NCBI GenBank assembly: GCA_030390025.1
Contig: CM059430.1
Coordinates: 153,512,001-153,576,000 of the forward strand
DNA from: Squalus acanthias
Taxonomy: Eukaryota
Direction: 5' to 3'
Length of the DNA: 64,000 nt
This document shows, one piece after another, positions 2,193 to 64,000 of this stretch. The position numbers and the translations under genes are program-made. The notes beneath the pieces are model-generated. The model did no database searches. It saw only the letters and a list, made by a program, of their open reading frames with translations, and was not told the origin of the DNA. The stretch's first letter is position 1; every line of letters begins with the position of its first letter.

Positions 2193-2209
2193 TCTTTCCT
2201 GCTTTCAGC

Positions 2210-2930: not shown

Positions 2931-3279
2931 CACGGGCAGCTGCACAATTATTCTTATATCTTTGTCAACTCACGGTTTTACTTTAAGGACATCCGATGAA
3001 TTAGGGCTGATGTCCCAAGGGCAGAAGTGTCCGAGTGTTTTGTCTTCTCGGGCAACTTATGTCCATATGATGCAGCCTCGCAGGCTATATATAAAGTTTA
3101 AATCTATGTCCCTTGCATTTGCATATAGCTCAAAATGCTGATGTTAACAAATCTTGGTGTTCTGATTTAGGATTTATCCACTAATGAGGAACAGTGCAGG
3201 GTACAGATCTTTTCAACTAAAAACAGAAGCTGCTGGAAATACTCAGCAGGTCAGGCAGCATCTGTGGAGAGAGAAACAG

Positions 3280-3316
3280 AGTTAACGTTTCAGGGCGATA
3301 ACCTTTCGTCAGAACT
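3280..3316 (-). ncRNA. Minimal type I hammerhead ribozyme motif (PLE family A)
   Basis: Minus strand: AGTT-CTGACGA-A-AGG(TTATCGC)CCT-GAAA-CG-TT-AACT; stem I AGTT/AACT, palindromic stem III ACGT. Confidence 0.8.
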
Positions 3317-5924
3317 GGAAAAAGTTAGAGATGTAACAGATTTAAGCAAGTACAGAGGCAGGGAAAGGGAGGAGGGGAGGAAAGAACAAAAAGGAAGGTC
3401 TATGATAGGGTGGAAGGCAGGAGAGATTAAATGACATAAGGGATAATGGTGCATGGCAAAAGGGGGAGGTAATGGGACAAGTAAAGAAACAAAGATGGGT
3501 CTAGAGGTGTAAATGGGAATATCAGAATCATCACCAGCTGCCGTCCGATATAATGGGGGAAGAGGTTATGATCTGAAATTGTTGAACCCAATGTAGAGTC
3601 CAGAAGGCTGTAAAGTGCCTAATAGAAACATGAGGTGCTGTTCCTTGAGCTTCATTGGAACAGTGTAGGAGGCCAAGGACAGAGAGGTCAAAGAGGGAGT
3701 GGAGCGGAGAATTAAAATGACAGGCGACCGGAAGCTCGGGGTCACTCTTGTGGACTGAACAGAGGTGTTCCGCAAAGCGATCACCCAATCTGCATTTGGT
3801 CTCCCCAATGTAGAGGAGACCGCATCGTGAGCAGCGAATACAGTATACTAAATTGCAAGAAGTACAAGTAAATCACTGTTTCACCTGGAAGGAGTGTTTG
3901 GGGCCCTGGACGGTGGGAAGGGAGGAGGTGAAAGGGCAGGTGTTGCATCTCCTGCGCTTGCACGGGACGGTACCGTGGGAAGGGAAAGGGGTGTTGGGGT
4001 GATAGAGGAGTGGACCAGGGTGTTGCGGAGGGAACGGTCCCTTCGGAATGCTGAAAGAGGAGAGATGGGAAGATGTGTTTGGAGGTGGCGGAAATGGCAG
4101 AGGATGATCCGTTGAATGTGGAGGCTGGTGGGGTGGAAGGTGAGGACAAGGGGAACCCTATCGTGGTTCCGGGAGGGAGGGGAAGGGGTGAGAGCAGAAG
4201 TGCGGGAAATGGAACAGACACGGTCGAGGGCCGTGTCAACCAGGGTGAAGGGGAATCCTCGGTTGAGGAAAAAGAAAGACATATCGGAAGCACTGGTATG
4301 GAAGGTGGCATCATTGGAACAGATGCGACGGAGATGGAGAAACTGGGAGAATGGAATAGAGTCCTTTACAAGAAGTGGGGTGGGAGGAAGCATAGTCAAA
4401 ATAGCTGTCGGAGTCAGTGGGCTTATAGTGGATATTGGTCGATAGCCTATCCCCAGAAATGGAGACAGAGAAGTTGAGGAAGGGAAGAGTCGGAGATGGA
4501 CCATGTGAAGGCGAGGGAAGGGTAGAAATTGGAAGCAAAGTTGATGACATTTTCCAGTTCGGGGCGAGAGCAGGAAACAACTTCAATGTATCGGGAAAAG
4601 AGGTGAGGGAGGGGACCTGAGTAGGAATGGAACAAAAAATGTTCCACATATCCCACGAAAAGGCAGGCATAGCTAGGACCCATACGGTTTCCCTTTTACT
4701 TGGAGGAAGTGAGTGGAGTCAAAGGAGAAGTTGTTCAATTTGAGAACCAGTTCAGCCAGGCGGAGGAGGGTGGTGGTGGATGGGGACTGGTTGGGCCTCC
4801 GTTCCAGGAAGAAGCAGAGAGCCCACAGGCCGTCCTGGTGGGGGATGGTGCTGTAGGGAGATTAGACATCCATGGTGAAAAGGAGACGGTTAGGGCCAGG
4901 AAACTGGAAACTATTAAAGTAGCAGAGGGTGTCGGAAGAGTCACGGATGTAGGTAGGAAGAGACTGGACAAGGGGAGAAAAAATAGAGTCGAGATAGGAA
5001 GAAATCAATTCCGTGGGACAAGCAAAGGCTGAAATGATGGGTCCACCAGGGCAGTCCTGTTTGTGGATCTTAGGAAGTAGGTAGAAGCGGGCTGTGCGGG
5101 GTTGGGGGACTATGAGGTTGGAGATCGTGGAGGGAAGATCTCCAGAGGAGATGAGGTCAGTGACAGTCTTGAAAGCGATTGCATGATATTCGGTGGTGGG
5201 GCCATGCTCCAGGGGGAGGTAGGAGGAGCTGTCCGAAAGTTAGCGTTCAGCCTCCACAAGGTAGAGGTTGGTTTGCCAAACAACAACAGCATCACCATTG
5301 TCAGCAGGTTTAATGACAAGGTTAGGGTTGGAGCTGAGAGAACCGAGTGCTGCAAGTTCAGAGGGAGGTAGGATAGAGTGAGCGAGGGGAGCAGAGAAAC
5401 TGAGATGACCGATGTCATGTCGACAGTTCACAATGAAAAGATCTAGTTCACAATGAAAAGATCTAGAGGGTGAGAGGCCAGATGGAAGAGTCCAGGTAGA
5501 ACAAGAATTCTGAAGATGGGAGAAAGGGTGCGCTGTGCGGGGGGAAGACTCCTGGCCAAAGAAGTGGGCGTGGAGGTGGAGGCGATGGAAGAAGAGCTCA
5601 GCGTCGTGCCAAGCTCGAAATTCATTGCGGTGGGGGCGTAAGGGGGTGAAGCTGAGGCCTTTGCTGAGGACTGATTGTTCGGGGTCAGAGAGGGGAAGGT
5701 CAGAGGGGATAGTGAAAACATGGCAAAGGGAGAGATTGAAAGAAGGGATAGGGTCTGAGGAAAGTGAAGGGGGAGAAGGTTCCGGAGGGGTGTTAATATC
5801 CAAGAGTTGTTGAAGCTTGTGATCCTTGACACCTGAACGGAAGAAAAAAAGTATTTTGTTCAAGCGCCGGATGAGGCGAAGGATGAAATGGAACTGCGGA
5901 TCAGGACAGCTTTGAGATCGAGTG

Positions 5925-6230
5925 GGCAACACGGTGGCATAGTGGTTAGCACTGTTACCTCACAGCGCCAGGGACCCGGGTTCGAATCCGGCCTCGGATG
6001 ACTGTCTGTGTGGAGTTTGCACATTCTCCCCGTGTCTGCGTGGGTTTCCTCCGGGTGCTCCGGTTTCCTCCCACAGTCCAAAGATGTGCGGGTTAGGTTG
6101 ATTTGGCTATGATAAATTGATCCTTAGTGTTAGGGGGATTAAATATGCGGGGATAGGGTGAGATATGTGTCAGTGCAGGCTCGATGGGCTGAAATGGCCT
6201 CTATCTGCATTGTGGGGATTCTGTGATTCT
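5925..6230 (+). mobile_element. tRNA-derived V-SINE (HE1-like)
   Basis: Pol III A box (TGGCATAGTGG), B box (GGTTCGAATCC), V-domain-like GTGTGGAGTTTGCACATTCTCCCCGTGTCTGCGTGGGTTTCCTCCGGGTGCTCCGGTTTCCTCCCACAGTCCAAAG, CR1-like tail; second copy at 20601. Confidence 0.88.
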
Positions 6231-8449: not shown

Positions 8450-8653
8450 ATGAGAAGTCGCACAACACCAGGTTATAGTCCAACAGTTTTATTTGAAATC
8501 ACGAGCTTTCGGAGCGCTGCTCCTTCGTCAGGTAGGAAGGAGCAGCGCTCCGAAAGCTCGTGATTTCAAATAAAACTGTTGGACTATAACCTGGTGTTGT
8601 GCGACTTCTAATGTTTGTCCACCCCAGTCCAACACCGGCATCTCCGCATCATG
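8450..8653 (+). mobile_element. Foldback mini-PLE (family B) with hammerhead
   Basis: 74-bp inverted arms 8453-8526 / 8536-8609 plus a ~44-bp tail ending CATCATG; TSD GCCAAATA(C/T)CTAA at 8437-8449 and 8654-8666. Confidence 0.9.
8499..8534 (-). ncRNA. Hammerhead ribozyme motif (family B), short stem I
   Basis: Minus strand: TAC-CTGACGA-A-GGAGC(AGC)GCTCC-GAAA-GC-TC-GTGA. Confidence 0.7.
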
Positions 8654-28254: not shown

Positions 28255-28712
28255 ATGTGGCTCAGTTGGTAGCACACTCGCCTCTGAGTCAGAAGGTTGT
28301 GGGTTCATGTCCCACTCCAGGGACTTGAGCACATAAAGCTAGGCTGACACTCCAGTGCAGTGCTGAGGGAGTGTTGCACTGTTGGAGGTGCCGTCTTTCA
28401 GTTGAGACGTTAAACCGAGGCCCCATCTGTTCTCTCAGGTGGATGTAAAAGATCCCATAGCACCATTTCGAAGAAGAGTAGGGGAGTTATCCCTGGTGTC
28501 CTGGCCAATATTTATCCCTCAACCAACGTAACAAAAAACAGATTATCTGGTTATTATCACATTGCTGTTTGTGGGACCTTGCTGTGTGCAAATTGGCTGC
28601 TGCGTTTCCCACATTACAACAGTGACATTACTTCATTGGCTGTAAAGCACTTTGAGACGTCCGGTGGTCGTGAAAGGCGCTATATAATTGCAATTATTTC
28701 TTTTTTCTTTTC
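28255..28712 (+). mobile_element. DeuSINE (SacSINE1-like), near full length
   Basis: tRNA head (TGGCTCAGTTGG; GGTTCATGTCC), Deu-domain GCACTGTTGGAGGTGCCGTCTTTCAG..GAGACGTTAAACCGAGGCCCC, L2-type tail. Confidence 0.88.
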
Positions 28713-29042
28713 TCAAACCTCTCCTCCAGAAACAAAAAGTTAACTACTCTTGTAACAGTGATTCCAGAGTTCTCCAGAGACACACACAGACTATTGAAAT
28801 TCAGCAATCACACAGCACTCACTGATATACTGGAAAGCTCTACGAATCAGTAACAAATCACTAATTTCATTAACTATCTTTTATAAATGATGTGTACTCT
28901 TAAAATAATAAAACTGTAACTTAACTTAAAACATTAAAAGAACCTTAACAACTTAAATTAAAATTGTATTCCCGGGCGTGATGATGATAAATTATGAGAA
29001 GTCGCACAACACCAGGTTATAGTCCAACAGTTTTATTTGAAA

Positions 29043-29079
29043 TCACAAGCTTTCGGAGCGCTGCTCCTTCGTCAGGTGA
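29043..29079 (-). ncRNA. Hammerhead ribozyme motif (family B), intact
   Basis: Minus strand: TCAC-CTGACGA-A-GGAGC(AGC)GCTCC-GAAA-GC-TT-GTGA. Confidence 0.82.
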
Positions 29080-29268
29080 AGTGAAGGAATACAAAATCGA
29101 CAAAGCATATATAGATAGAGAACAATGCCTGTGTAACTTACAATGGCAGACGACTACATTTAATCCTCCTGACTGTTTAAATGATTAAATGTAGTCCTCT
29201 GCCATTGTAAGTTACACATGCATTGTTCTCTATCTATATATGCTTTGTCGATTTTGTATTCCTTCACT

Positions 29269-29306
29269 TTACCTGACGAAGGAGCAGCCGCTCCGAAAGC
29301 TTGTGA
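29269..29306 (+). ncRNA. Hammerhead ribozyme motif (family B)
   Basis: TTAC-CTGACGA-A-GGAGC(AGCC)GCTCC-GAAA-GC-TT-GTGA. Confidence 0.8.
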
Positions 29307-29649
29307 TTTCAAATAAAACTATTGGACTATAACCTGGTGTTGTGCGACTTCTCACTTTTGTCCACCCCAGTCCAACACCGGCATCTCCGCATCATGATAA
29401 ATTATGTGTAACTCACTTCCAGGGATCTGTCATTTCCTTTGCAACACGCCCAGAGATCGTTCTTTCTCGATATAATCTTCTCCTGAGGTCAGATCATACT
29501 CTGTGTAATTCATTCCTCGAGTTCTGTGAAATTCACTCCCAGACATTTGTTATTCTCTATACAACTCACTCCCAAGGATCTATCATTCTTCATGCAACGC
29601 CTTCCCAGTCATTATATTTATACATAAAAAAGGACGTGAATGCTGACAA

Positions 29650-42839: not shown

Positions 42840-43954
42840 TATCAGTGATCTTATCTCTGTCTATTTGTCTGAGGGACTGCCTAACAAAAAGAAGACCGCA
42901 GAACCAATAGTGAAGCACAGGAAAGATACAACTGTGCACAAGTGTGCATGCGCCAAGTGGTGGAGAGGACAATCGGGGTGCTGAAATCATGCTTCCGGAG
43001 CCGGGAAGGTCGGGGGGGAGTTTGCAGTACTCACCTGAGAAAGTGGCGAGGGTTGTGGTGGTCTGTTACGTATTGCACAACTTTGCCCTGCGGGAAGGAC
43101 TGACCCTTAACCCGGCAGACGAGAGTCCGGCAGAAATGGACGACATGGAGGTTCCCAACATGGATGTTGCTGGGGCCATGCTTTGCGGGCCACCCGAGGA
43201 AGCCACAGCTGCAACGGGCGGGGCGGCTAGAGAGCAGCTGGTGGCTTGTGCATTTGGACAGTGATGAGAGCGGCAAGATGCCTCCGCCTACCCCCTCCCC
43301 AGGAAGGCACACAAAAGAACAGGCAAGATTGAAAGTGAAACAGTGAACTTTTATTGTAGCAGCAAATACTCATTGCAAGACTTTTGAGGTAGTTATTGAT
43401 AAACTTTACATAAACACTGAGGATTGTACATGAAAGACAAATTGAGTTAACTAGCTATTTGCTACTATGTAAACAGTTGTGATGTTAAAATGGTCGATGC
43501 TAATAAAAATTTTTTAACAGTTTAAACTGACTTCAGACTATAACTTAAGCACAACAAAAACGAAATCAATTATAATAGAAACATTCATTCATAAATATAA
43601 ATAACACAACACCAATATTTCAAGAACAGCAAACATCAAAAAAGAAACAGACATGCCCCCCTCGCATCTGTGCCTGAGGGTCGCTGTGACAAAAGGTGTG
43701 AGTAAAAGGAGGTAGATTCTGCAAGAGGTGGCACCCTACTGCCTCCTGCGCCTTGCCCTTCCCCGTGACCTGATCCCTCTTGTGCCAAGGGCATGACCTC
43801 TGTGTGTTATCTGTTGCCCATCAGCAAGTAACTCATAGCTGGGTGCTACTGCTCAAAGGTGAAATTAGAAGTTGCATCTGTTAGAGATGCAGCTGCTGAC
43901 TTGTGGGCCTGCACTGCGTCTGCGTTGGGAGCCGGCAAAGGGGGTTCTATGGGC

Positions 43955-45394
43955 ATCACTACAGACTTCTTACAGAAACTCAGCACCCACGGACCAGTTG
44001 AACCAGGAACACTCCTCGCCACGATGGACGTATCGGGACTCTACACCAGTATCCCCCACGATGACGGCATCACTGCGACAGCCTCAGTACTCAACACCAA
44101 CAACAGCCAATCTCCAGACGCCATCCTACAACTCATCCGCTTCATCCTTGACCACAATGTCTTCACCTTCGACAACCATTTTTTTACCCAAACACACGGA
44201 ACAGCCATGGGGACCAAATTCGCACCCCAATACGCCAACATCTTCATGCACAAGTTCGAGCAAGACTTCTTCACTGCACAGGACCTCCAGCCAACGCTGT
44301 ACACCAGATACATCGACGACATTTTCTTCCTTTGGACCCATGGCGAAGGATCACTGAAAAGACTACACGATAACATAAACAAGTTCCATCCCACCATCAA
44401 ACTCACCATGGACTACTCCTCAGAATCGGTTTCATTCCTGGACACACGAATCTCCATCAAAGACGGACACCTCAGCACTTCACTCTACCGCAAGCCCACG
44501 GACAACCTCACGATGCTCCACTTCTCCAGCTTCCACCCTAACCACGTTAAAGAAGCCATCCCCTATGGACAAGCCCTGCGAATACACAGGATCTGCTCAG
44601 ACGAGGAGGAACGCGATGGACACCTACGGACGCTGAAAAACGCCCTCGTAAGAACGGGATATGACGCTCGACTCATCGATCGACAGTTCCGACGGGCCAC
44701 AGCGAAAAATCGCATAGACCTCCTCAGAAGGCAAACACGGGACACAACCAACAGGGTACCCTACGTCGTCCAGTACTTCCCCGGAGCGGAGAAACTACGC
44801 CATGTTCTTCGCAGCCTTCAACATGTCATCGATGACGACAAACACCTCGCTAAGGCCATCCCCACGCCTCCACTACTTGCCTTCAAACAGCCGCCTAACC
44901 TCAGAAGTACCATCGTTCGCAGCAAATTACCCAGCTTTCAGGATAACAGCGACCACGACACCACACAACCCTGCCATGGCAAACTCTGCAAGACATGCCA
45001 GATCATCAACACAGATACCATCATCACACGTGAGGACACTACCCACCAGGTACATGATACATACTCATGTGACTCGGCCAACGTTGTCTACCTCATACGT
45101 TGCAGGAAAGAATGCACCGCGGCATGGTACATCGGCGAGACCATGCAGACACTGAGACAACGTATGAACGAGCACCGCGCAACAATCGCCAGGCAGGATT
45201 GTTACCTCCCAGTCGGGGAACACTTCAGCAGTCAAGGACATTCAGCCTCGGATCTGCGGGTAAGCGTTCTCCAAGGCGACCTTAGGAAAACACGACAACG
45301 CAAAATCATCGAGCAGAAACTGATAGCCAAGTTCCGCACTCATGAAGACGGTCTCAATCGGGATCTTGGGTTTATGTCACGATACATGACGTGA
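43955..45394 (+). CDS. Penelope-like RT + GIY-YIG endonuclease ORF (family B), 5'-truncated but uninterrupted
   Basis: TMDVSGLYTSIP, GTAMGTKFAP, RYIDD, FLD, YRKPT, C-x2-C, VVYLIRC..WYIGET..RMNEH, GLN; the first ~30 aa of the called ORF come from flanking Harbinger DNA. Confidence 0.95.
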   Translation: MTTDFLQKLSTHGPVEPGTLLATMDVSGLYTSIPHDDGITATASVLNTNNSQSPDAILQLIRFILDHNVFTFDNHFFTQTHGTAMGTKFAPQYANIFMHKFEQDFFTAQDLQPTLYTRYIDDIFFLWTHGEGSLKRLHDNINKFHPTIKLTMDYSSESVSFLDTRISIKDGHLSTSLYRKPTDNLTMLHFSSFHPNHVKEAIPYGQALRIHRICSDEEERDGHLRTLKNALVRTGYDARLIDRQFRRATAKNRIDLLRRQTRDTTNRVPYVVQYFPGAEKLRHVLRSLQHVIDDDKHLAKAIPTPPLLAFKQPPNLRSTIVRSKLPSFQDNSDHDTTQPCHGKLCKTCQIINTDTIITREDTTHQVHDTYSCDSANVVYLIRCRKECTAAWYIGETMQTLRQRMNEHRATIARQDCYLPVGEHFSSQGHSASDLRVSVLQGDLRKTRQRKIIEQKLIAKFRTHEDGLNRDLGFMSRYMT

Positions 45395-45704
45395 TCCGGA
45401 CTCGAGTCGTCGTTGGCTTGTTCTCAGATGTGATTCCCAGTAAAAAAGTAAAAATTTTAAAGTTAATCGTTTTACATACAGACGGCAGCTTTTGACACAT
45501 TCGACCCCATGCGATTCCACCTCATTGTCTCAGTTGTATCTTGCTATGTCTTTGATGTGGTACCTTCCTGGCTGACCTGATTAACTTTATCACACCTCGG
45601 CAGATAAACAGTCAGGATGATTGAATTCAGTGGTCTGCAATTGTAAGTTACACATGCTTTGTTCTCTATCTATGTATGCTTTGACGATTCTGTATCTCCT
45701 CACT

Positions 45705-45742
45705 TCACCCGACGAAGGAGTTTTAACTCCGAAAGCTTGTGA
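45705..45742 (+). ncRNA. Hammerhead motif in the PLE 3' UTR (core U4 to C)
   Basis: TCAC-CCGACGA-A-GGAGT(TTTA)ACTCC-GAAA-GC-TT-GTGA. Confidence 0.7.
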
Positions 45743-45968
45743 TTTAAAATAAAACTGTTGGACTATAACCTGGTGTTGTGCGACCTCTCATCATATGTAT
45801 GACAGCCGAACTTGATCTATGCAACTCAAATACTTGTATAAGTGCCTGGCTAAAGTGACTTAAATTATCATCCATGTGGGCAAAATGATTTAAATTTATC
45901 TGATTAATAAGGGCCAACTGATCAGTAATGGTCTGGGTATTTATGGCCTACTGATTAAACAGATTAAT

Positions 45969-47480: not shown

Positions 47481-48553
47481 CTTCTTTTCCTGTCAGTGCA
47501 CGGCTTTTTAAAAACAGTTAATTACTTTGCACAACTTTTTAAAAACTTTAAATTTGACTTTGCTCAGCATTTTACAAACTGTCCATTTTACTTTGCCATT
47601 TTATTAAAAGTTTTTAAAAGTTTATAAAAGTTTTAAACATTTTCCCTGCAGTTACAATTAAATTTAAAAGGCCATTTAAACACTGCTCACCTCTCTTTAA
47701 AGTCCAAACTGATTTGGTGGGCGCGTCTCAGCCTCCTGTCAGTTTCGTCAATTTTTGTGGGCGTGTCTTGTACTGACGCCCCATGTGATCTGACTTTTGC
47801 AAGCGCGTTAACCAACGCTGCTCAGATATGTGAGAGTCAACGTCGGTGCAAATCTTAGGGCTTTTTATCGAAGTTCTCACCAGGAGGATTGAACAAGATT
47901 TGTGGGGATTTTTATGAGGTCAGCGTTGAGTGCCATCACTTCGCCGCTGACCGCAAATTACGGACCAATGTATTTCCTGTCATTTGAGCCATAGAAACAC
48001 TGAGTGGTAGGAACACTATACTGTCCAGGGATGCTATAGGGTTGCAGAAGGGGTTTATATTTTAAAGGATGATAACTAGTTCCATTAATCGCAGAACAAT
48101 CGATTGCACGAGATACGGTGGGAAAATTGAGTTATTTTCCTTCCCCCACTGAGGTTGACAACCCAGGAACCTGTGGAAAAAAAATTATTATGATCTTGAC
48201 TCCAGAAAATCAGCTGGGATCATAGATACAGGCATGGAACAGGCAGAAGCCATTATGGTAAAACGGAAAATCAACCGCTGTGTTTCGTAGGCCACAGAAT
48301 CAGCCCTTGTTTCACCAACTGCCAAATGCAAAGGCACACAGGGGTACCATATGGGTGGGATCACAATGATGACAATTCTTTGAAAACCTTAATAACTGCT
48401 CTCTCCACATTATAAAATAGCTCAGTCAGTTGAGCACTAGATGCAGGTCCTGAAGATCCTGACAGGGTCCATTCAGGTTTCATTCTTTTGAGGTGGAAAA
48501 AAATCAGTATTGCATCTTAGGTTGTACAAAGAAAGTAGGATACTATGCATAGA

Positions 48554-48983
48554 AACAACAACAGAAAACGCTGGAAAAACTCAGCAGGCCAGGCAACATC
48601 CGTGGAGAGAGAAACAGAGTTAACGTTTCAGGTCGAAACCCTTCGTCAGAACTGAGAAAAAAGCAGGAAATGAAACAGATAAAAAAGCAAGGGGGAGGCT
48701 GGGGGGAGGAATAACTATGGTAAGTAGAGACATTAAGAGATGCTCAAGGCAAGACGAGATGGTAATGGGACAGGTTAAGAAACAAAAGGTGGCTAGAAGT
48801 GTGAAGTGTGAAATGCTGGCAGAATGAGAGACAGCTGCCATAGGGGGAGAGAGAGAGAAAAAAAGGAAAAAGGCACGAACCAAAAGGGTGGATAAAATGT
48901 ATATATATATATATATATATGTGTGGTAGGGGCAGAGGTTATGATCTGAAATTGTTGAACTTTGAGTCCGGAAGGCTGTAAAG
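48554..48983 (-). mobile_element. 5'-truncated PLE family A insertion
   Basis: 13-bp TSD TACTATGCATAGA (48541-48553, 48984-48996); ORF end TLQPSGL as in 3566-3808. Confidence 0.9.
48618..48653 (-). ncRNA. Hammerhead ribozyme motif (family A) with UUCG loop
   Basis: Minus strand: AGTT-CTGACGA-A-GGGT(TTCG)ACCT-GAAA-CG-TT-AACT. Confidence 0.82.
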
Positions 48984-50859
48984 TACTATGCATAGAGTTT
49001 GCCACACTTCACATTATTTTCCTTGGATACTCTTAACTGTTTGATAATGAAAATTATGATCAGCACTGCACCCAGTAGACATTCGTGGTGAACAGGGATG
49101 GACTTCCATGATATTTTCTCTTTCTCCCACATCATAAACACAGACATAATGAAGAAACAGGACTACAGTTTTAAAAAATATACTTGGTAACCCATTTACA
49201 TTATTAACATTTCCAGACAGTTCACTCAAAGATTGAATTGTGCAGCACTAACCATCTGAAAACAAAGGACATTTATAAGACCTTCCCTTCCTGCTGGACT
49301 TTTCTATGGCCAATCAAGTATCTTAACTGTACTCACCAATACAAGTTGATGACAGTATCAGTTGAATTCTGCCACCAATGACCTGATAAAATCATACAAG
49401 CCTTCACCACTTGGGCTGTATCTTGTGAGTGGCTGAAATTTAAAGTTGAACTATGCTGTCTCTTAAAATAGAAAATTAATATGTTTATTCATTTAAATAA
49501 ATAAATCAATGCTGATGACAAGCCTATGTTTGGACCACATTTTCAGACATTTTACATTCCCCATGCTTGCTGAAGGGGGAAAACCAGGGTATTAAGATTG
49601 ATGAGCACATGCAATGCCTTGTTCTTGTTAGCTCTGTCTCAGCTAAAGAATAATTTGCAAGAAACCTTTCAAGGATAAAGTAGCTTACCTGGATGGAGGA
49701 ACATGTCTCTATAGTAATATAACTCTTTTCTTCCTGAGGGTAAGATCCTCCCATTTTTCTTCTTATTCTCTGGTTTTCCCCACGATCTGTGGTAACTGTG
49801 GCTGAGAGGATGGGTGACTGAGCTACCTTAGCCCTCTGTCAGTGTCACTCTGAGATAGCCACTTTCTGAAAATGTGTGCAAGTGGTTCAAGAACAACTCT
49901 TCTCTGATATTCTCTTTGCTGTGAAGTGATTAGCTTTAGTTTCATGTCTTCCTACAGTGCTGCAGCTGAGATTGGAAGCTTAATCGAGTAGGGAATTGAA
50001 CATACATTTCAATTTCTATGACAACTCACTCAAAGATTGAATTGTGCAGCACAAACCTCAAACCTTCATAACCTCACAGGCTGGTACTCTAATACACTGC
50101 ATCTATATATCAGTACTTTTTAAATAAAGCAGCCCAAAAAATTCCTCTCCTTCTTGGAGAGTGGAGGCAGAGGCATTAGAATTTGGAGTAGAACCCACGA
50201 CCACTGGATTTCCGTTCCTTCTCTTCAGCAAATTCTGGCTGATGGGGAGGTGGGGGCCAATTCTTCTGTCTGCGCCCCTGTGTCTTGATGGCGGTTTGGG
50301 GGCATGTCTGGGGGCGTAACCAGTCTAACCTGGGAGTCCTGCCACGTATGCCCCTGATAAGTCCACCGGTTTCTACATGTGCTAAGAGTAGGTGTAGGTG
50401 CCATTTTGGGACCACACCTAGGGTGGCACGAAACAGGACTTAAGTGGTTACAAAAACTAGAAGAATCGAATGGCGTTTGATTCTGGGCCTGCTAAGTGGG
50501 AACAACTTTAAAGAAGCTTGTCACTGCTTGCAGTCTTTGGCCCAAACTGGCCTGTGGCTCTCATTCTTGGCAAGCAGGTGCTGCTCCAAGATTTCAACTG
50601 GCCAGTGGGAGGGCACGATAGCATCACTAGTAACACAGGCACTTACCCCTAATACGTTAATGACCTTGTACTCGGGATTTGGAATGGGGTCATTGGGAGA
50701 CAAAAATGGTGGGTGGACATTCTGCCCTGCCGCACTTCCGGTGATGCTTTGGCTCTGCTATAATTTTTACCCCAGTATCTTAGGATTCCTGCATTGCGCT
50801 GAATTAGATGTTCACAGCTAGGGCAGTGAATTTGATAAAGATTCTTAAAAATAATTGAT

Positions 50860-51773
50860 CGCCCTGAAATTCGCCTCTCCGGCTTGCCGCGGGGGTAAGG
50901 ATCGCGCGCGCACTTACCTACCGCTCCTGCCGTTGTGTTTTGGGCCCACGGGAACTTCAGCTCCTGGGCCTGCTCCAACTGCCGGTGCGCAGTGCTTGCG
51001 TGTCCCAGGGGCGCAGTTAGTGCGATGCGTCCCCTGGGATCACGTGGGCCATGGAGAGCCAATGGCAGCAGACCATCTTTCATTCATAGATTTGACAGGA
51101 GACCTGTCAAATCTGTGAATTGAAATCGGCCCCAAAAGAACAGCTAAACTTAAAATAAATTAAAAAAAACCATCACATTTATAAAATAACTATAGTTAAA
51201 TAAATTAACCACTTTAAACAAAAATTTAAATTTTTGAAAAAATTAAAATACTTTTTAAAATTGATAAAAATAAACTTACCTTTCTTTAAAGTATCTAAAA
51301 AAGATATACCTGTTGAAATGTTTTTTAAATTATACTTAATTAACCACTTACTTTGTTGAAAACGGCTCCTGTGCCTCCTTTTTATTAACTTTTGCTAACT
51401 TACCTGACGAAGGAGCGAACTGCTTCGAAAGCTTGTAAAATTAAATAAATCTGTTGGACTATAACCTGGTGTTGTGCGACTTCTCATTTTTGTCCACCCC
51501 AGTCCAACGCCGGCATCTCCACATCATGTCCTTTTTATTAGCGTAGGTTCTTCACTACTTACCCTCCCGTAGAAACCTGAAAAAAAATCTAAGTTTGCTG
51601 CGTGCGTGCAGCCTCTAGCGCGCACGCGGTTCACCTAGGAATCGCCCCTTCACCATACCGGAAGTTCCGGTTTCCCGCGCATGCGCAGTGCACGCAGGAA
51701 ACTGGCACTTCGGGACGCTTTACGGGTGAGTACGGACTGTGTACTCACCCGGGAAGGGCCGAATTTTTGGCCC
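50860..51773. mobile_element. Harbinger/PIF-type MITE, copy 2, carrying a mini-PLE insertion
   Basis: Near-identical to 15763-16526; flanks GAT/AAT. Confidence 0.88.
51388..51528 (+). mobile_element. 141-bp mini-PLE (family B): hammerhead + pLTR end + tail
   Basis: 12-bp TSD TCCTTTTTATTA; absent from MITE copy 1; TTAC-CTGACGA-A-GGAGC(GAACT)GCTTC-GAAA-GC-TT-GTAA at 51400-51438. Confidence 0.92.
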
Positions 51774-52577
51774 AATATAGGGTGATTGTTTATACTTAAC
51801 GGAGGGGAAATATCATCCAGGGTGCCTGCGTCAGTAGGAGAACTAAAAATGCCAACTGTTAAATAGGGATTGCTCTCTTGAAGTTAGGGTGCGTATCTGG
51901 GGCAGTGAGGGATATTTACCATGCATCTATCCTGGGCAGAAAAAGGGTTGAAACTATTCCAATCTTCGGCAGTGATGTCTTTCAACTTCATGAACACAAA
52001 TATTCATGAACACAAATATTCATGAAAATAATAACGTGGGGTAACTATTTAGGCCACAGTCAAAGGATTCCTTCCCGCAGTTTATCTCATCTCTAAGTAT
52101 GAAGCACTTTCAGACTTTTCACACACAAATATTTTGGAGCTAATTTCAGAATTTTCCAACTCTGGCCTTTATTCCCTTGAGTCATTTCTTGTACTGTACT
52201 AACAAATCGCCTTAATGAAAGTGACTCTTTATTTTAAAAACAGCCTGCAGGCATGGAAATGTAACTAAGAAATGTTAATATTGAAGCACGAGTCCAAGCA
52301 CAATGGTATCCATTAAATCAGAAAGCAGATAAGAATCACGGAACAATGTAGCATTGTTATATTATTACTGATTCTAATTTACAAATGGGTTCTGAATGAG
52401 AGTCTTTAATCAGCACAGGCGCTTAGATATTTAATGCAAGAAACATGTTGCAGATTGGTTTCTTTCTTCTAGGAACATATTCAGATATATGAGACCTCTT
52501 ACACATTTAAATAAAATGATGATCATCTTTGCACAATGAGGGTGGATAACTATTTCCCAAGCACCAACCAATACGTA

Positions 52578-52670
52578 AAAAATAAAAAGCAAAAATCTGC
52601 AAATGCTGGAATCTGAAACAAAAACACAAAATGCTACAAACACACAGCAGGTCAGTCAGCATTGGGGGAC
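52578..52670 (-). mobile_element. Degenerate PLE family A terminal fragment
   Basis: AGCAAAAATCTGCAAATGCTGGAATCTGAAAC..CAGCAGGTCAGTCAGCAT resembles 63243-63320. Confidence 0.6.
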
Positions 52671-54904
52671 AGGACAGATATGGAATATGCCACATGACTG
52701 AACTTCAAAATGCCCTTATGAGGTCCATATTGTATTTGGTAAACTTTGACTGGAAGCCTGAGGAACTGCAGTACATTTGGATTAAGAATGGGCCAAGCAT
52801 GGATCCCTCAGTCACTCCAAGCTTCAAAGGAAGTGATATGCATTTAGCATATTCATATATGGGACACTGCAGCCATTATGTATAATGTATGAAGCATTAC
52901 AGCCAATGTATAAGGCAGTGGTGCCTACTAGAAAATAGTGCCCTTTTCTTTACACTCACTGTTTATTTAAATGTAAATTTCTTGTCCTATTTTAGACCCC
53001 CATAACCGTGAATCATCTCCTCGTCCAATAGACAGGTAAAAATGCCTTGGAATATTTTTCTATGTTGCTGGTGGTATATAAATGCAAGTTGTTGTTATCG
53101 TTGTAGACAAATTGCCCACAGGTTCTGCCAGTGACACTCTATAACCAGCTATTTGGATTTGCACAGTTGCACAAATCTGTTGATTTTCTCTCCATCTCAG
53201 TGTGGAAGCCTCCAGTCAGCGTGTCCCTTTGATGACACAGTCAAAATTGAAAATGTCCAATCTTGAGAAATAATAGCTCTTATCACTTCATGGACACTAC
53301 ACATTGGAAGTCCAATGTGCGGTCCCACTAAACCACATGGACTTGTTACACCGTGTATCCATATCTGTCTATCTGTGCATCATTGTGGCTGTGCCAATGG
53401 GCCATTAACAGATGTAGAATCTCATTCAAACAGATGAAGTTTGGGAGACTGCTAAACCATTAGAAAAAGGTGTTCAGTATTAAGTTTGACAACATGCTAA
53501 ACAATTCCTCCAAATATAGTTTAAGCATGTGTATTTGTACAACTTGTTTTATATGATGACCTGCAGAACAGCTGTTGAACAAAGGATACATGTGAAGGAT
53601 TGACTGCTTTGTTAGACCTGCATTGGATTGTAATCCTTTGATGGCCAAGTGAGATATAACATCCCGTCAAATTTTACAATTCAATAAACAAGAGGCTTGA
53701 AATCACACTAATGACAAAATGCGTAAATGTTTTAATTTTGCTGGTGAGAACCATTAGCTGCCACGTATGGGTGAACCTTAAAAGATAATTATTATTTGTA
53801 CTTAAAGCATTTAAACAGAATTATAAACACAATGAGAATTGAGATTGCTCAAAAAAAATCCCAAGAAAATTGTGCACTGCACTTCACCATTTGTTCCACA
53901 TGTCCTCCTCAAGAGTCTTTTGTGCTGACACACTAACCACATCTGTGCACCATCCCCACCATGTGGCCATTTTGAGAATAATGTCATATGTGGGTTCAGC
54001 ACCATAGGATAAATTGTTAACCTTTATTTCTGAACAAAAGCACCAATATTCACTCTAAAGTTGTAAGTTTTATAAGAATTTCATGCGACATTGTTTAATT
54101 CTTAAACATTATGGAACCCTCATCAAGTAATTAAATTGGTTTGTTGCAGTTGGACAGTTTCAAGGAGGCCTGATCCAGTGATACAATGCGTTGTGTTGTG
54201 CCATGCACTAAGCGGCAGGAGCAGGGCTGGCAGCTGCAAGTGACTTCTGTTTCACTTTCCTCAGTGTTGACTTTCTAATGCCGCGATGGATCAGATGTAG
54301 ACAACAACTGTCGATGAGCTTTGAAAAGAGGGAGGAGAAATAATTGGTAGACCTACCTCAGGTCCTACTTTGACACCCAATGGCAGAAATGTTCTTTGTC
54401 AGCTGCCTGTCTTCTCAGTGGGATTTACTTATTTATGTTGTGAAGATGAGGATCCCTTTTCCTTCAATTATTTTTCTCCCCTTCCCTGGTATCCATAATG
54501 CCATACACTATCTGTGAAGAAGCTGAGTTAAGAGTTTGTTCCCATGCTTGCACCAATGCTGTTCTGAATTGAACGTACGAGAAAACGCAGATTGGCTCTC
54601 CCTCTAATGCTTTCCTTCCTTCCTGTGAAGAAGAGCTTAGTCACCATTTATCATCAAGAGCAGTTCAGCTGCCAACAGGGACCTGTTGTGTGGGGAATCA
54701 TTGGCACAAACCTATCTCCCATTACTCCATTATACAGCAAATTAGGGTCTCCAATGTGATTTGGCACTGCATCTCAACAAGCTGCTTTATTATTTTGTAA
54801 ACTTTTTTTGTGGATTTTGTGTTTGTCAGGGTGAAGTATATTATGTTGGGTAACAGAGGACTTTCTATTTCAAATGTTAATGTCAGCAGATTATGCATAA
54901 TCCT

Positions 54905-55215
54905 GTTAAAGGCAGAGTAAAGCTCCCTCTACTCTGCCCCCACAAAGTCCATTGTCAGATAACCATCTCTGACTGCAGCAGTCTGGCATTTTTCCATTTC
55001 CCACACCAGTCAACCTGTGGCCTATCTGAGTGAGACTAGTGCTAACTAGCACTGAATGAGGGACAGTATTGTGCTATGGGTCCATGCCCATAAGGAACTG
55101 GACTGAAATTGCCAAACCTAATTTTATGTAGGTCTCTAACTGCCAGCAGACAGAGAAGTTTCATCCAGTCAGAGTGGATGTGAACCCATATCCCAGAGGT
55201 GAAAGTCTATCATCT
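54905..55215 (-). mobile_element. LF-SINE-like ancient SINE
   Basis: AGGAACTGGACTGA, GGATGTGAACCC..CCAGAGGTGAAAG and GTGCTAACTAGCAC match my recollection of the LF-SINE consensus (reverse complement). Confidence 0.55.
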
Positions 55216-57302
55216 ACAGCCCAACACATCACAAACTGCCCTTTTTGAACATAAATTCAAAACCCTCATAAGATTAAAAATGTCACATTCATTCACAATT
55301 TCATTGAAACAGGCTCACGGAGTCTCAGATCAATTTTATTGACTTAGCTCTAAAAATTGATATTATACAACAGATAAATTTCCCAGCCAAACAATATTCA
55401 AGTAGCCTCTGAATGAAACCATTTTACTTGCATTGAATAAATGTACCACATTTCACACACACATGTATGAGTGTGGTTAGTTTATTCAGTTAATAATTAG
55501 TACAAACATCACATAAAAAGGAATTGGTTGAAATGTATGAACACGGTACACTCATTGCATTCAACATACTATATGACCACATATATATATAACATTTTTC
55601 CATTTTTCTTCACAATACTGCAATAATAAAGAAAAGATTTCAGTTACCATATTTTTGAAAAGTTGGATACAATTAATTTAAGGCACAAATATTCATGGAC
55701 TAAATACATTTGAATGAATATTTGGACTCTTCAACTGCCCGTTGGTAATTATCCTTCAATAAGGCGAGATTACAAAGATGCTGTGACATGTTATACCTTG
55801 TAACTGCTTAACCTGGACTCAGAGCTCGTTCCCTTTCAGATTCAGGCAACAAACGCTGTAATTTAAATTTTGGTTTTGACCATTTTATTGGAAATGCAAA
55901 TCTAAATCATCTCAATCAGATTTAAAATGTTCACAATTTTCCGGCAGGTTAAGATGTTAGAAGACATAAATTATACATTTTTAACTAAATGTCTCAATAT
56001 TTATGGGTATTTAGAAGATTTTTAAGGCAATCATGCACTTTCCGAAGTAAATAAATCCTTCGCATCACTGCAGGGCTCAATATTTTCCAAGCAACAGGAT
56101 TGGAAAGTAAGGTTGCGGAGATACCCGACAGCAGGACCAGCGGAAGACAAGCGTAACAGTACCGGAGTGGGAGGCAGTGCCTTAAAACAAGTATCTTCAG
56201 AAGCACAACACAGCACAGTGAGCATAGAATGACATACATCAGAATCGGTTACAGTTCCTTATCTCTGGCTTGTCGCTAAACGTGTAATGGGTCCGGGTTA
56301 ATTTTAATCTCTGCGGGATTTTTTTTGCTACGATCTGTAATGATTACTAACAAATGCCCATCCCCCCCCCCCCCCCCCCAGATAAAAAGATCACAATTAA
56401 AATAAAACCGTAGCATTGTGCTGGGAATGGTGCCGGCGAACTATAAATCCTATAGCACTTTGCTGACCAGCCGCTGTTAAATCTGAGCCCTGTTCATAGT
56501 CCTAATCAGTCATGTAAAAGAAGCAGAGTTACACAATCCAGTCTGGTGCAACGATAAAGATCCTTCGCTCCAGTGGGACTACAGTTCATGTCTAGAGGCC
56601 AGTGACCGCGACCAGGGGAGGCTATCGGAGAATCTAATTGATAGGCGCGCCAATAGAACTGATTCCTTGACGATCTCAGACACCATTTTAAAGCTGAAAT
56701 AAATCTTATCAACCAAAAGCAATGTTTGAATTGTTAGCTCCACTCTAACACTCACTCGACTATATATATATAAATGACTGAATAAAATGGAAGATTTGCT
56801 TTTGTATCGGAGTGCGCGGTGCACGGATGTCCCTGTGGTTAGATGTTCAGGCGTGCCTATCTCTGAGTGTACCCTCCAGATCAGATTGTGTGAGGGAACA
56901 TGTGTATATGAGGATGTCTCTGTGTGCGTTCGCATATATGCATATGTGCGCATGTTTAAGAGGATGTGTGCATACAGATGTTTGTATTTAGATGAAGGTG
57001 CGCGCATTTGTGTAAGATTGGTGTCAGAAATAATAAACACGGACAGTAACCTCATCCTGAAAAATAAAAAGCCGGAAACAGGATAAAGCTATTCAGCATC
57101 TCAAGCTCGCTTCTTTCATTGACCATGGGTACAACATTCTATCGTGGACTCAAAACTAAACGATCTAATCTGCTGAGAAATGGTTCTGTAAGATGTCTCC
57201 CTGCTTCCAAAGGCAAATCAAGCAAAATTGCAGATTATTGTCTACTGTTTTATCTTGCATTATTCATCCTTGTCCAGTTCTTTCTTTAACATAACATTCC
57301 AG

Positions 57303-58180
57303 AAAGTAAGCTGTGAGGAGGACACAAAGAGCCTGCAAAGGGTAATAGACAGGTTAAGTGAGTGGGCAGTAAAGCGGCAGATTGATTATAATGTGGGGAA
57401 TGTGAGGTTATTCACTTTGGTATGAAGAATAGAAAAACAGAATTTTTGTAAATGGTGAGACACTATTAAATGTTGGTGTTCAGAGAGATTTAGGTGTCCT
57501 CGTACAGGAAACAGAGAGAGTTAGCATGCAGGTACAGCAAGCAACTAGGAAGGCAAATGGCATGTTGGCATTTATTGCAAGGGGGTTGGAGTACAAGAGT
57601 AAGGAAGTCTTACTACAATTGCACAGGGTGTTGGTGAGACCACACCTGGAGTACTTTGCACAGTTTTGGTCTCCTTATCTGAGGAAGGATATACTTGCCT
57701 TAGAGGTGGTGCAACAAAGGATCACTGGATTGATCCCTGGGATAAGAGGGCTGTCCTATGAGGAGAGATTGAGTAGATTGGGCCTATACTCTCTGGAGTT
57801 TTGAAGAATGAGAGGTGATCTCATTGAAACATATAAGATTCTGAGGGGGATTGACAGGGTAGTTGCTGAGAGGTTGTTTCCCCTGGCTGGAGAGTCTAGA
57901 ACTAGGGGGCATAGTCTCAGGATAAGGGGTCGGCCATTTAAGACTGAGATGAGGAGGAATTTCTTTACTCAGAGGGTGTGAATCTTGAGAATTCTCTGCC
58001 CCAAAGGGCTGTGGATGCTGAGTCCTTGAGTATATTCAAGGCTGAGATCGATAGATTTTTGGACTCTAGGGGATCGGGCCGGAAAGTGGAGTTGAGGTCG
58101 AAGATCAGCCATGATCTTATTGAATGGCGGAGCAGGCTCGAGGGGAGGTATGGCCGACTCCTGCTCCTAGTTCTTATGTT
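57303..58180 (+). mobile_element. CR1 LINE 3' fragment
   Basis: LVRPHLEYFAQFWSPYLRKD; CR1 tail GATCAGCCATGATCTTATTGAATGG. Confidence 0.9.
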
Positions 58181-61100
58181 CCCACAGTTCCAGCAGATCG
58201 GGATCCACCATGTTTCACACTGAATTCGATTATCTATGTTTGTATTCACTTTTATAACTATCAATTCTGTTCCTAACCAAATATTTCTCCAACTCTTTGG
58301 ATGATATATTGTTCTACACAATGTTTGTGGCCTTTTCACTAATACTAACACTAAAACTATTAATGCCACTCCCTAACAGTCCATCAGTAACATATGCCTT
58401 GCTATTAGAATATCTGCTGTATCTAAAAAGGTCAAGTCCGAAGTGATGCTATTTTTCATTTGTATCCAAAAAGTTTCCGTGTATTATTTTTATAATTGCA
58501 ATCCAAAACGAGTGTATTTCTAAATTATTAGTTTTTTTAATCATACAGTCATATGTAAATATGATTTAGCATTAACACAAATCTATCAAATAGCTGTGAT
58601 CGAACTGTTTGTGGGTTATAGGAAAACCACGCAAAACAGAGCCCAGAAGAAAGAGATATAAAATGGGACTGGATTAATCTCCGAAACCGAACTGAACGGA
58701 GCCCAGGCCCAGGTAGCATTAAATCTGTCTCCGTGCCATGCTACAGAATGGTCGAACACAGGCGAAGGTCTGTGATCGCCACACATCGTAAGAGCAAGGG
58801 TCTCCAAACAGAAAGAAAAACAGCGAGTAACCACCAGCCATTCTCCGGTATCTCCTCGTGGCTGGTTAACGAGCGGTGTTCAGCAAAGGATGGAAGTCGG
58901 TCACCTGGCGGGGAAATGGTGCCCGGCGGTAGGATAAATCTGAAGGAGTCAACTAAATAAAAACAAAATAATGGGGGAATAGGAAACAACATCCAATAAA
59001 ATGGGCTACAGCGAGCCAGTCTGGGATCTCTACGGTTAATAGTAAGGAATCCTTCACCGCCGCAACATAAGGGTAATATATCGTTTTAAATACGTCCATT
59101 TTAGTTTCTGAAATAAGGCCTGTTTGTTGTTCACTGAAAGCAGACACCAAAACTACAGCTCTGTAACTATTGTCTTGCTTCTTCGAAGGAAATTGAATGA
59201 ACACTGACTGGACTATATTGCAAAGTATAAATGAACAAAGTAGTTGAAAGTAGATGCATGCATGCTTCATTTCGAATCAAATTACAATTCTTTCTCGTTA
59301 AAAGATCCTAACATTTTATTGCCATTCAATCTCTAGCTTTCACGCACATTAATTCTGATGCCGTTATTGCTTAAATGTGTGGTATCTCCCATTCATTCTT
59401 TCCATTCATTCATTCAGCAGCAGCAAATTCAAGTCATATAAAACTGTACAGGTGCCACTAACAAAGATAAATGAATACAGATGTGAGTTTTAAATGTTGG
59501 ATATTTAATAACACGCATTAAAAACTAAAACAGCATAAATAACTGGCCAACTAACTTACTGATTAGGAATAACTTAAACCTACTTGAAATCAGTTGTGTA
59601 AGGTCTTTGACTACTGCAGTTTATTTTTAATCATGTTCTCCTATTCAATGCTGCTGGTGCCAGAAGTGAACGTGAACCCCAGGTTTTCTTTTATAGTCCT
59701 GAGCTCAGAACTGATCCCCAAATCTAAACCGAACCAAACTTGGGACAGAACTGAACTTTACCCTTAAAATTCAGGTCTGTTCCCTTTAACTAAAAGTGTC
59801 TATTGGAAATGGCAACATCCGATACGACTTAATTCAACTTTTGAGATTTCATGCAATGTTAACTAAAGGTGTCACAATGAAATGATGAGGTGAGCAGGAA
59901 TGAGAACATTGTGGTGGAATGTCTTTCGGCGCAGGGGAAAACCTGGAGCATCAGTCAGTAAGGGAGGAGAGGTCTGGAGTGTCCCAAAGATGAAATCATG
60001 AATATTGATGTCGGGATCCTGGATAGCATGAAATGGGAAGCTTTGATGGCAACTTTAGCTGTCGTGGAAAACCTTGAACATCAATCCGAGAAACCTGGAA
60101 TGTCTGACGTGTGAAGCTTTGAGCATCCATGTGGAAGACTTTGATGTCAATTGAAGTACCTGGATTTCTGACGAGGAAAACCTGGAGCGTTGATCTATAG
60201 GAAGCCCTGGGCATTAATCTGAGAAACCCAGAGTGCCTGATGAGGGAGATTGTAAATGTCAATCAAAGAAACCTGGAGCGGCTCATGGAAGGAGCATTGA
60301 GTATAATTCGAGGACCCAGAAATGTTGGTATGAGGAGCCTGGCGTCGCTGATGGGAAACACTGAGCTATCTTCTCGAATCCTGGGGTTTCCAGTAGTGCC
60401 TGCAGAATCAATTCTTGGACGCTGGAGGAGGCTTCAGGCATCTGCAATGGTAGGACACTTTTTTCTTTAGAGATTAGTGCTGGATGGGTGGGTGACTGGA
60501 GGTTAAGAGTCTGTCATGCGGGATTAGTTGCTTTGATGTGCTTTGAGTGTCCGGTTGTGACACGTATACAATGCAACAAATGTATTAAATATGGTCCTGT
60601 AATTGTGACAGATAAACTGGTTTTGGAATAGTTAGTGTGATGTCCATTGAGGGAATCGGCCGGGAGGAGTTTCCAAACACAACAGCGCGCAGAAGCTGAA
60701 CGTCCATTACTAGATTTACAGTAGTCAATTTAAGGTACCTGGGCAATCTTGGCTGTTGCTGCATTTGCTTCGCGCTGACCAGCTGGGTAAATCCTCCAAA
60801 CCTGTTCCCCTGATGAGCTCATCATTTGCTAAAACAAAACATTCTCACAGAAGTAGATTTAAAAAAAAAACCATAAAGGCTATCAAAATGGTTATTCTGG
60901 ACAGATTATTTTTTGAGAGGATTCCCAGTGGTGGGATAGTCTCTCCGATAGCTGCAGCAGAATAGTCTGCAGCAAGGGAATACCTGGCTCGAATTCCCCC
61001 GACCAACCTCCTCACTGAGCGAGTTCTCAGCCCGGGGAGAAGGGGGGAGGAGGAGGGGGCACTTCACATCGGACCAACCACAGAGTGTGATTGAATGCGG

Positions 61101-62579: not shown

Positions 62580-64000
62580 GGGCAGAGCACGGAGCACCAC
62601 GGGAGAGGCCTGAGGAGTTGAAACAGGGGCGACGGCGGCAGATTGGGGGAAAAAGGAGCGGAGAGGCAAAAAAAAACCAAGGAGTGACATCACAGGACAG
62701 CAGGTAGGTGATTGGTTGGTGAGTATTACAGCGTTTTTTTCCTCTAAGGTAGACAGTGGTTTAAACTAAGAGATGGGGAACTATAACTATTACTTTATTA
62801 AATCAATAACTTAACTAGATGAACTAGTTAATTAATATAAATATAAATAATCATTTGAATAAAAACTTTAAACTAATTAAATTAATTCAGGTTATCAATC
62901 AGCAAATACATAAAAGAAATTCTAGAGATGGCAGGGCAGGCTATGTGTCGGGACTGTAGTATGTGGGAGTTCGTGGACAGCGAGACCGTCCCGGATTCCC
63001 ACATCTGCAGGAAATGTCTCTGCCTTCAGTCACTCTGGCTCAGAGCCATTGAGCTGGAGTGCGAGTTAGAGACACTCCGAAACATAAGGGAGGAGGCGGA
63101 ATTTCTGGACAGTTTTATCCAGAATACAGTCACACCCCAGAGGAAAGCACAGGTTCAGGAAGGGGAGGGTGTGACTGTTAGGGAGCTGGGTAGCGTGGAC
63201 TTAGGAGAGGTTGAGAAGGAGGTCCCGCAGACACTGGTACGATAGCAAAATACTGCGGATGCTGGAAATCCGAAATAACAATAGAAAACGCTGGAAAAAC
63301 TCAGCAGGCCAGGCAGCATCCGTGGAGAGAGAAAGAGAGTTAACGTTTCAGGTCTGATGAAAGGTGATCGACCTGAAACGTTAACTCTCTTTCTCTCTCC
63401 ACGGATGCTGCCTGGCCTGCTGAGTTTTTCCAGCGTTTTCTATTGTTATCCCGCAGACACTGGTCCTGTCCAACAGGTACGAAGTACTCGCTACCTATGA
63501 GGACAAGGAGAAAGACTGCGGGGAGGACAGCCACAATGCAGACCGAGGCACCATGGCTCAGAAAGCTGTCCATGGGAGGGGGGAAGAGCAGAATAGAAAT
63601 GCGGTAGTGATAGGGAGTTCCATAATTAGAGGGATAGATAGAGTCCTCTGCAGCCAAGATCGAGAATTCCGAAGGGTGTGTTGCCTACCTGGTGCCAGGG
63701 TAAGGGATAAGTTGAGGCGACTGGAGAGGAATTTGGAAAGGGAGGGGGTAAATTCAGTTGGCGTGGTTCATGTCGGAACAAACGACATAGGTAGGAACAG
63801 GTAGGAGGTCCTGCTGAAGGAGTATCAGGAGTTATCAACTAAATTAAAAAGCAGGACCTCGAGGGTAATACTCTCTGGATTATTGCCCAAGCCACGTGCA
63901 AATTGGCATAGAAGCAGACAGATCAGGAGAATTAACATGTGGCTAAAGGGCTGGTGTGAGAAAGAGGGGTTCCTTTTCATGGGACATTGGCACCAGTACT
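62580..64000 (+). mobile_element. CR1 LINE 5' UTR and ORF1 (zinc finger + SGNH esterase), continuing beyond the window
   Basis: MAGQAMCRDCSMWE..HICRKC; VVIGSSIIRG, CLPGARVRD, VVHVGTNDIG; ORF1 interrupted at 63239-63448. Confidence 0.88.
63239..63448 (-). mobile_element. Foldback mini-PLE (family A) inserted in CR1 ORF1
   Basis: 80-bp inverted arms 63275-63354 / 63370-63449, ~36-bp tail on the left, 16-bp TSD TCCCGCAGACACTGGT; hammerhead core CTGATGA-A-AGGT(GATCG)ACCT-GAAACGTT at the loop. Confidence 0.92.

Follow-up and report, generated by a model that had tools for sequence, protein, structure and literature searches.

Two head-to-head ends of a Penelope-like element within one 16-bp TSD in a LINE ORF1 of Squalus acanthias

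The insertion at 63.3 kb of the window, the 64,000-nucleotide stretch of Squalus acanthias DNA analysed here, is composed of a tailed and a tail-less copy of one element end, placed head-to-head within a 16-bp TSD. It is a single retrotransposition product of an endonuclease-bearing (EN+) Penelope-like element (PLE) and no separate hairpin element, and its architecture is almost certainly one that is known from PLEs. Inverted 5'-truncated copies with a tail of 30–40 bp at one end are typical of this group (PMC8557442), and the inverted truncated copy, one-sided tail and TSD have also been described for PLEs elsewhere (PMC8969392). The insertion thus neatly illustrates a kind of PLE insertion that has already been published.

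Anatomy of the insertion and its host LINE

The initial annotation had placed a 16-bp TSD, a tail and 80-bp inverted arms at 63223..63464, and these coordinates proved right, with a tail of 36 nt (Table 1). The two TSD copies are identical at 16/16 positions, the first base of the TSD being shared with the right arm, and a 16-bp direct repeat at this spacing was met at 1/1500 random window positions. The arms are 80 nt each, 100% complementary and 15 nt apart; the foldback has a fold z of -24.9, with 0/200 shuffles equally stable. The whole insertion is 226 bp long, consists of two stubs only and is without an ORF. Each arm is the 3' end of an element termed family A, with further copies at 2404, 3207, 48552 and 52588, and three of the other family A copies have ends that are 85–95% identical to this inverted 5'-truncated end. 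The arms match each other at 79/79 positions vs. 75, 69 and 68 of 79 for three other copies.

Table 1. Coordinates of the insertion at 63.3 kb, its host and related features of the window
Feature	Position	Strand	Description
Left TSD	63223..63238	.	16 bp of LINE ORF1, identical to 63449-63464
PLE tail, 36 nt	63239..63274	-	3' extension of the tailed copy
Tailed arm	63275..63354	-	family A end, 5'-truncated at +17 from hammerhead C3 (3' strand of stem II)
Loop, 15 nt	63355..63369	+	stretch by which the tail-less copy extends further 5'; sense for family A on the + strand
Tail-less arm	63370..63449	+	family A end, stops at the internal (tail-less) 3' boundary common to other copies
Right TSD	63449..63464	.	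identical to left TSD
Minimal hammerhead motif	63350..63386	+	predicted cut after 63382; stem I damaged by the joint
Host LINE ORF1, 5' part	62928..63238	+	Cys-rich N-terminus; no Pfam match
Host LINE ORF1, 3' part	63465..64000	+	SGNH esterase-like, in frame with the 5' part, runs off the window
Family B foldback	8450..8653	+	loop of 9 nt; joint at hammerhead stem I/II; shorter arm tailed
Family B foldback	28995..29396	+	loop of 17 nt; joint lies 90-107 nt upstream of C3; shorter arm tailed
Long decayed family A copy	3207..5930	-	remains of RT and GIY-YIG; tail-less end; links family A to a PLE ORF
Long family B copy	43940..45794	+	RT and GIY-YIG, tail-less end
Diverged tailed family A copy	52588-52662		
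Tail-arm complementarity (7-9 nt)	63239-63354	-	
Tail-arm complementarity (7-9 nt)	8536-8653		
Tail-arm complementarity (7-9 nt)	29270-29395		
Tail-arm complementarity (7-9 nt)	51398-51527		

The host of the insertion is ORF1 of a LINE. When the ORF starting at 62928 and the frame that resumes at 63466 are translated separately, they are in register across the empty site, so the PLE insertion is younger than the LINE copy, as had been proposed. The 3' part contains an in-frame stop at 63802-63804 and matches PDB 4C1B (E=5.7e-4), the esterase of the ZfL2-1 ORF1p, a member of the CR1 clade; esterases are also found in RTEX and some PLEs (PMC3905857). By its ORF1 esterase, the host is tentatively assigned to the CR1 group of LINEs, and its ORF2 would lie beyond the window end.

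Parent families and the minimal hammerhead

The parent family A and a second family, B, are EN+ PLEs as judged from their translations. The family B protein, intact-looking at 43946-45391, matches RVT_1 with E=6.5e-9 and GIY-YIG with E=4.6e-4, the latter below the curated cut-off. The family A remnant at 3678-4894 matches this protein with E=2e-32 (ORF identity of 28% over 314 aa and 37% over 100 aa), and a Pfam search of the remnant alone matched 0/3 of its fragments. Both families possess a CxxxxCxxC linker before the endonuclease, and a Zn-finger-like Cys motif between RT and EN marks the Neptune and Nematis clades (PMC8557442); both therefore appear to carry the Cys linker by which these two clades are recognized. 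The two families had been called sequence-unrelated, which is correct for their terminal DNA (best blastn match of 10–21 nt, with E of at least 0.26) and incorrect for the ORFs. Since the A and B proteins are related, the two families cannot serve as independent witnesses for PLEs as a whole.

Each of the six solo copies ends at one of the two fixed boundaries; four are tail-less and two tailed. A tail-less solo family A copy of approximately 430 bp (48541-48994, - strand) has a 12-bp TSD and an internal (TA)n run, and a tailed solo family B copy of approximately 140 bp (51376-51540) likewise has a 12-bp TSD; the repeat that hosts the latter has another copy at 15761-16531 without the insertion, which provides an empty-site comparison.

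The hammerhead was called from its motif and its stems, and at Rfam gathering thresholds the whole 64-kb window gave 0 matches. The minimal motif is present in 9/9 copies examined, in all of which a 4-nt palindrome replaces stem III, and the CUGANGA and GAAA boxes are intact in 7/9, with one core change in the other two. The boxes, the unpaired base after A9, the palindromic 15.2-16.2 and the NUH triplet of minimal hammerhead ribozymes (min-HHR) were all found. Helix I is 4 bp long in 3/3 other family A copies; in the 63.3-kb copy, it is interrupted after 1 bp by a G-A mismatch at the second pair, and the 10.1-11.1 pair is A-U, so that this copy has neither the helix I of 4–5 bp nor G10.1-C11.1. 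Family B has G-C at 10.1-11.1 in 5/5 copies, and its stems I and II pair via different sequences from those of family A. MFE folds of both families fail to support the hammerhead as a monomer, and minimal PLE hammerheads have been proposed to act as dimers (PMC4209133). On these features, the family motif would work like a min-HHR, with the 63.3-kb copy damaged.

The min-HHRs of metazoan PLEs share with these motifs the core boxes, the unpaired base after A9, the 4-bp helix I, the palindromic 15.2-16.2 and the lack of a loop 3; they differ in that A-U or G-U mostly replaces G10.1-C11.1 in family A and in that helix I of the 63.3-kb copy is broken by the joint. Opposite-strand hammerhead pairs 100–700 bp apart have also been noted in metazoan PLEs, and the Penelope intron of D. 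virilis ends at the helix I 5' end (PMC4209133). An acceptor-like CTAAC, pyrimidine run and CAG adjoins helix I in the 3.3-kb family A copy (3312-3330, - strand), and a pyrimidine run with CAG does so in the 48.6-kb copy (48650-48670, - strand), both having been read by eye. Two copies, at 63.3 and 2.4 kb, have their starts no more than a few bases away from this acceptor-like CAG/helix I point.

Position of the joint and priming of the two copies

With C3 taken as +1, the arms start at approximately +1 (tail-less) and +17 (tailed), and the predicted cut falls after +29, which places the joint 12–29 nt upstream of the predicted cut site, between the stem I 5' strand and the stem II 3' strand, at a short imperfect palindrome of the parent. 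The loop had been described as the hammerhead core. It does contain U4-A9 of the CUGAUGA box, the unpaired A, the stem II 5' strand and most of loop II, but this is only the 5' half, and the GAAA, the ACGU palindrome and the cleavage triplet sit in the arm. An inversion exactly at the first C of CTGATGA could not be upheld, as two bases (TC) fit both sides of the joint, within a longer imperfect match, and the joint cannot be pinned to the C.

The antisense upstream of C3 in the family A copies at 48.6 and 3.3 kb matches the tailed-arm start at 5/6 positions, and in 3/4 runs (X1, X5 and X21), among the rows listed, the loose-end consensus at 48636 has the same first six parent bases. In the MFE fold of the 48.6-kb antisense DNA, the outer stem closes weakly in register with the joint (-3.7 kcal/mol); the MFE fold of the 3.3-kb copy uses a different register, and the palindrome duplexes are also weak (-5.4 and -6.1 kcal/mol). 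Head-to-head inverted pLTRs with junction palindromes have been reported for PLEs (PMC3846280). A joint at the ribozyme cut site was rejected because both arms span the cut, and a joint through stem II itself was rejected because it would have removed the CUGAUGA box. Since both arms cross the predicted cut site, the template was apparently uncut, in line with the in-vitro results for the Anolis PLE (PMC11167929).

We lean, at slightly better than even expectation, towards an origin in which both target strands primed at the two RT start sites of the element and the cDNAs were joined through the palindrome. The GIY-YIG endonuclease would nick both target strands 16 nt apart; one 3'-OH would prime RT at the internal start site to give the tail-less cDNA, and the other would prime at the outer start site 36 nt downstream to give the tailed cDNA, both being templated on uncut RNA of the same source. 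The tail-less cDNA would extend to the hammerhead 5' edge, and its 3' end would pair via the palindrome, either by self-folding and then annealing to the tailed cDNA or directly with it, two routes that are indistinguishable at this insertion; fill-in and ligation would complete the process. The hammerhead would mark the usual cDNA ends, as RNA 5' border, splice junction or structure, with its cleavage not making the fold. Had the tail-primed cDNA alone snapped back, the loop would read antisense on the + strand, where it reads sense, and a snap-back of the tail-less cDNA alone has no template for the tail; with both single-cDNA routes failing, a target-primed route needs two cDNAs.

The components of dual priming are known from a PLE of Anolis, and the closest analogue is L1 twin priming. 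The Anolis PLE protein cuts both target strands and extends them, uses two internal RT start sites, one on either side of the tail, and has been modelled as a dimer; insertion needs no hammerhead cleavage, and hammerhead mutants leave it unaltered in vitro (PMC11167929). L1 twin priming produces discrete TSDs of 12–18 bp with inversion, and it resembles the present case in that both target ends prime cDNA and the junction has microhomology (PMC11702581). In L1, however, the second primer lands beside the first cDNA end, with a gap or overlap of 1–10 bp (PMC11702581), whereas in the 63.3-kb insertion the starts of the two cDNAs are separated by 36 nt at the 3' end, and the same 80 nt are copied in both. 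This counts against dual priming, as the inner-junction duplication of L1 is 1–10 bp (PMC11702581) vs. 80 here.

A self-priming hairpin is rather unlikely as the origin. In this account, antisense RNA or free first-strand cDNA including the tail folds at the palindrome and is copied, and staggered EN cuts leave a one-sided tail before the product integrates with a TSD. Self-priming has been proposed for the head-to-head junction palindromes of PLEs (PMC3846280), and the tail has been ascribed to endonuclease resolution (PMC8557442). The account explains the identical arms, makes it obligatory that the loop lies on the tail-less arm, as observed in 3/3 foldbacks, and is consistent with the parent antisense DNA, which folds in the right register in 1/2 copies examined. 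Against it, the tail boundaries match the two in-vitro RT starts on sense RNA, which makes trimming unneeded (PMC11167929), and both kinds of end, tail-less (4) and tailed (2), occur as solo copies. As a trimmed antisense hairpin predicts the same loop orientation, the anatomy cannot separate it from dual priming.

An ordered form of dual priming is put forward tentatively and with considerable doubt: foldbacks would be two-primer products in which the internal site is used first, the cDNA runs to a fixed helix I border and the tail-primed cDNA follows second, so that the loop always lies on the tail-less arm, with a tail-arm stem of 7–9 bp positioning the start sites. Given the acceptor-like CTAAC, pyrimidine run and CAG of family A, the helix I border in this ordered model is possibly a splice junction or the RNA 5' end. 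The tail is 36 nt in family A and 40–41 nt in family B. The family A tail has a 9-nt stretch complementary to the arm, a 9-bp match being reached by 4/2000 shuffles, and the 8-bp tail-arm match of family B is marginal (75/2000 shuffles). This stretch in both families is, by its base pairing, a candidate stem for positioning the two RT start sites.

Other foldbacks, known systems and further features of the window

PLE ends account for all three of the window's strongest inverted-repeat loci, namely the 63.3-kb insertion and two family B foldbacks at 8450 and 28995, both with TSD-like flanks. Within the window, one arm only is tailed in 3/3 foldbacks, and in 3/3 the loop is formed by the part of the tail-less arm that extends beyond the tailed one (p=0.25 two-sided, n=3). 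The 8.5-kb joint has two additional bases, and the 29-kb joint shows no clear microhomology. The family B arms have diverged from each other (76/77 in the 8.5-kb foldback and 167/171 in the 29-kb foldback), and those of the 8.5-kb foldback are barely closer to each other than to other copies (74/76). Foldbacks constitute 3/9 of the PLE insertions vs. 0/12 of the merged CR1/L2/SINE pieces in the window (Fisher one-sided p=0.063), a weak control that leans towards an excess at PLE ends; it omits 11 merged rows of an unclassified repeat, and the labels of the 12 pieces come from reading ORFs and repeats with no library, the LINE copies being mostly older.

The similarity between the two families had been taken to indicate a general PLE mechanism. 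This is right, as inverted ends with a tail occur across clades (PMC8557442), but the generality is not new, and Naiad and Chlamys, which are without canonical hammerheads, share the inverted copy and tail (PMC8557442), so the ribozyme is not required. A joint fixed by the hammerhead was not borne out as a general rule either: of the three joints, two are found at the motif's 5' edge and one 90–107 nt upstream of C3, and none is at the cut site. It is therefore improbable that the foldback was driven by the hammerhead, whether through ribozyme cleavage or through an RNA dimer formed via the ACGU/AGCU palindrome, with the joint made at the catalytic core. The two joints at the motif edge speak for such an origin, together with a leading 5' end within 16 nt upstream of C3 in 4/9 insertions, the palindromic 4-nt stem III kept in 9/9 copies and the dimer action proposed for PLE hammerheads (PMC4209133). 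They are set against arms that both cross the cut, the distant 29-kb joint, the inverted insertions of Naiad and Chlamys (PMC8557442) and the hammerhead mutants that had no effect on insertion in vitro (PMC11167929).

It is more improbable still that the 63.3-kb locus is a ready-made mobile palindromic mini-element, a solo copy that was rearranged later or a fold-back artefact of the assembly. The 100% identity of its arms speaks for this group of readings, and as the only family A foldback in the window, it leaves room for a master copy. Against them, the centres of the two family B foldbacks compared differ, which shows that these were built separately, and the family B arms have diverged. 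The clean 16-bp TSD, one-sided tail and in-frame empty site fit one insertion event; an artefact would not return to the TSD.

The 63.3-kb insertion resembles the inverted-pLTR insertions of EN+ PLEs in its head-to-head inverted 5'-truncated copy, its TSD, its tail of 30–40 nt at one end and its junction palindrome, and it differs from them in consisting of two stubs only with nearly equal arms and in having its joint mapped to the hammerhead 5' edge (PMC3846280, PMC8557442). It also resembles PAc, a Poseidon-type PLE of Anolis carolinensis, in its minimal hammerhead upstream of two 3' boundaries that bracket the tail and in a template that was apparently uncut; families A and B differ in having a Cys linker like that of Neptune/Nematis and unlike Poseidon, and the LINE ORF1 target is not AT-rich (PMC11167929). 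The consulted text on PAc shows no inverted products and gives no model for inversion, accounting for the tail and not for the inversion (PMC11167929), and the formation of tandem and inverted PLE structures has been called still undefined (PMC8557442). No literature on twin priming or snap-back for PLE inversions was found in a search that covered subscription journals thinly, no statement of an ordered two-primer model for PLE foldbacks was found in the literature searched, and the consulted part of a preprint (10.64898/2026.07.22.740005) holds nothing further on PLE inversions.

The arm asymmetry and the 5' ends clustered at helix I are worth pursuing. If the 3/3 asymmetry, with the loop on the tail-less arm and the joint at helix I, holds over thousands of foldbacks, it would link the in-vitro RT starts to inversion and give the order of priming; if true, short foldbacks of the shark type would be a very large natural record of PLE priming order.

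Sequencing reads of four of 24 runs (X1, X5, X19 and X21) were examined over 43800-58300, a region that lies outside the 63.3-kb locus. Among the 15 of 2193 joints listed, none was a strand change and all were skips, and one 5c read row (X21, 51483 to 51445) is of no assignable class. Summed read depth is high over the family A, family B and CR1 bins in 4/4 runs, which is not a measure of copy number. A pattern scan of prokaryote genomes gave 0 loci, as did a first metagenome scan; one viral and eight metagenome loci matched elsewhere and were dismissed as chance, as all nine match only over the 17–22-nt pattern.

The window also contains an intact-looking ORF of 309 aa at 1275-2204 (- strand), which we take to be connexin-like, and one of 312 aa at 38322-39260 (- strand), presumably a Harbinger/PIF-type transposase nuclease. 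At 26459-27345, inverted repeats of 187 bp with 77% identity surround an unclassified repeat that recurs at 28256-28715, 31497 and 34180; the locus is possibly an old DNA transposon. Dispersed direct repeats of 28–46 nt, at spacings of 45, 64 and 130–133 nt, occupy 59900-60310, and some of them carry CTGAYGAG-like words.
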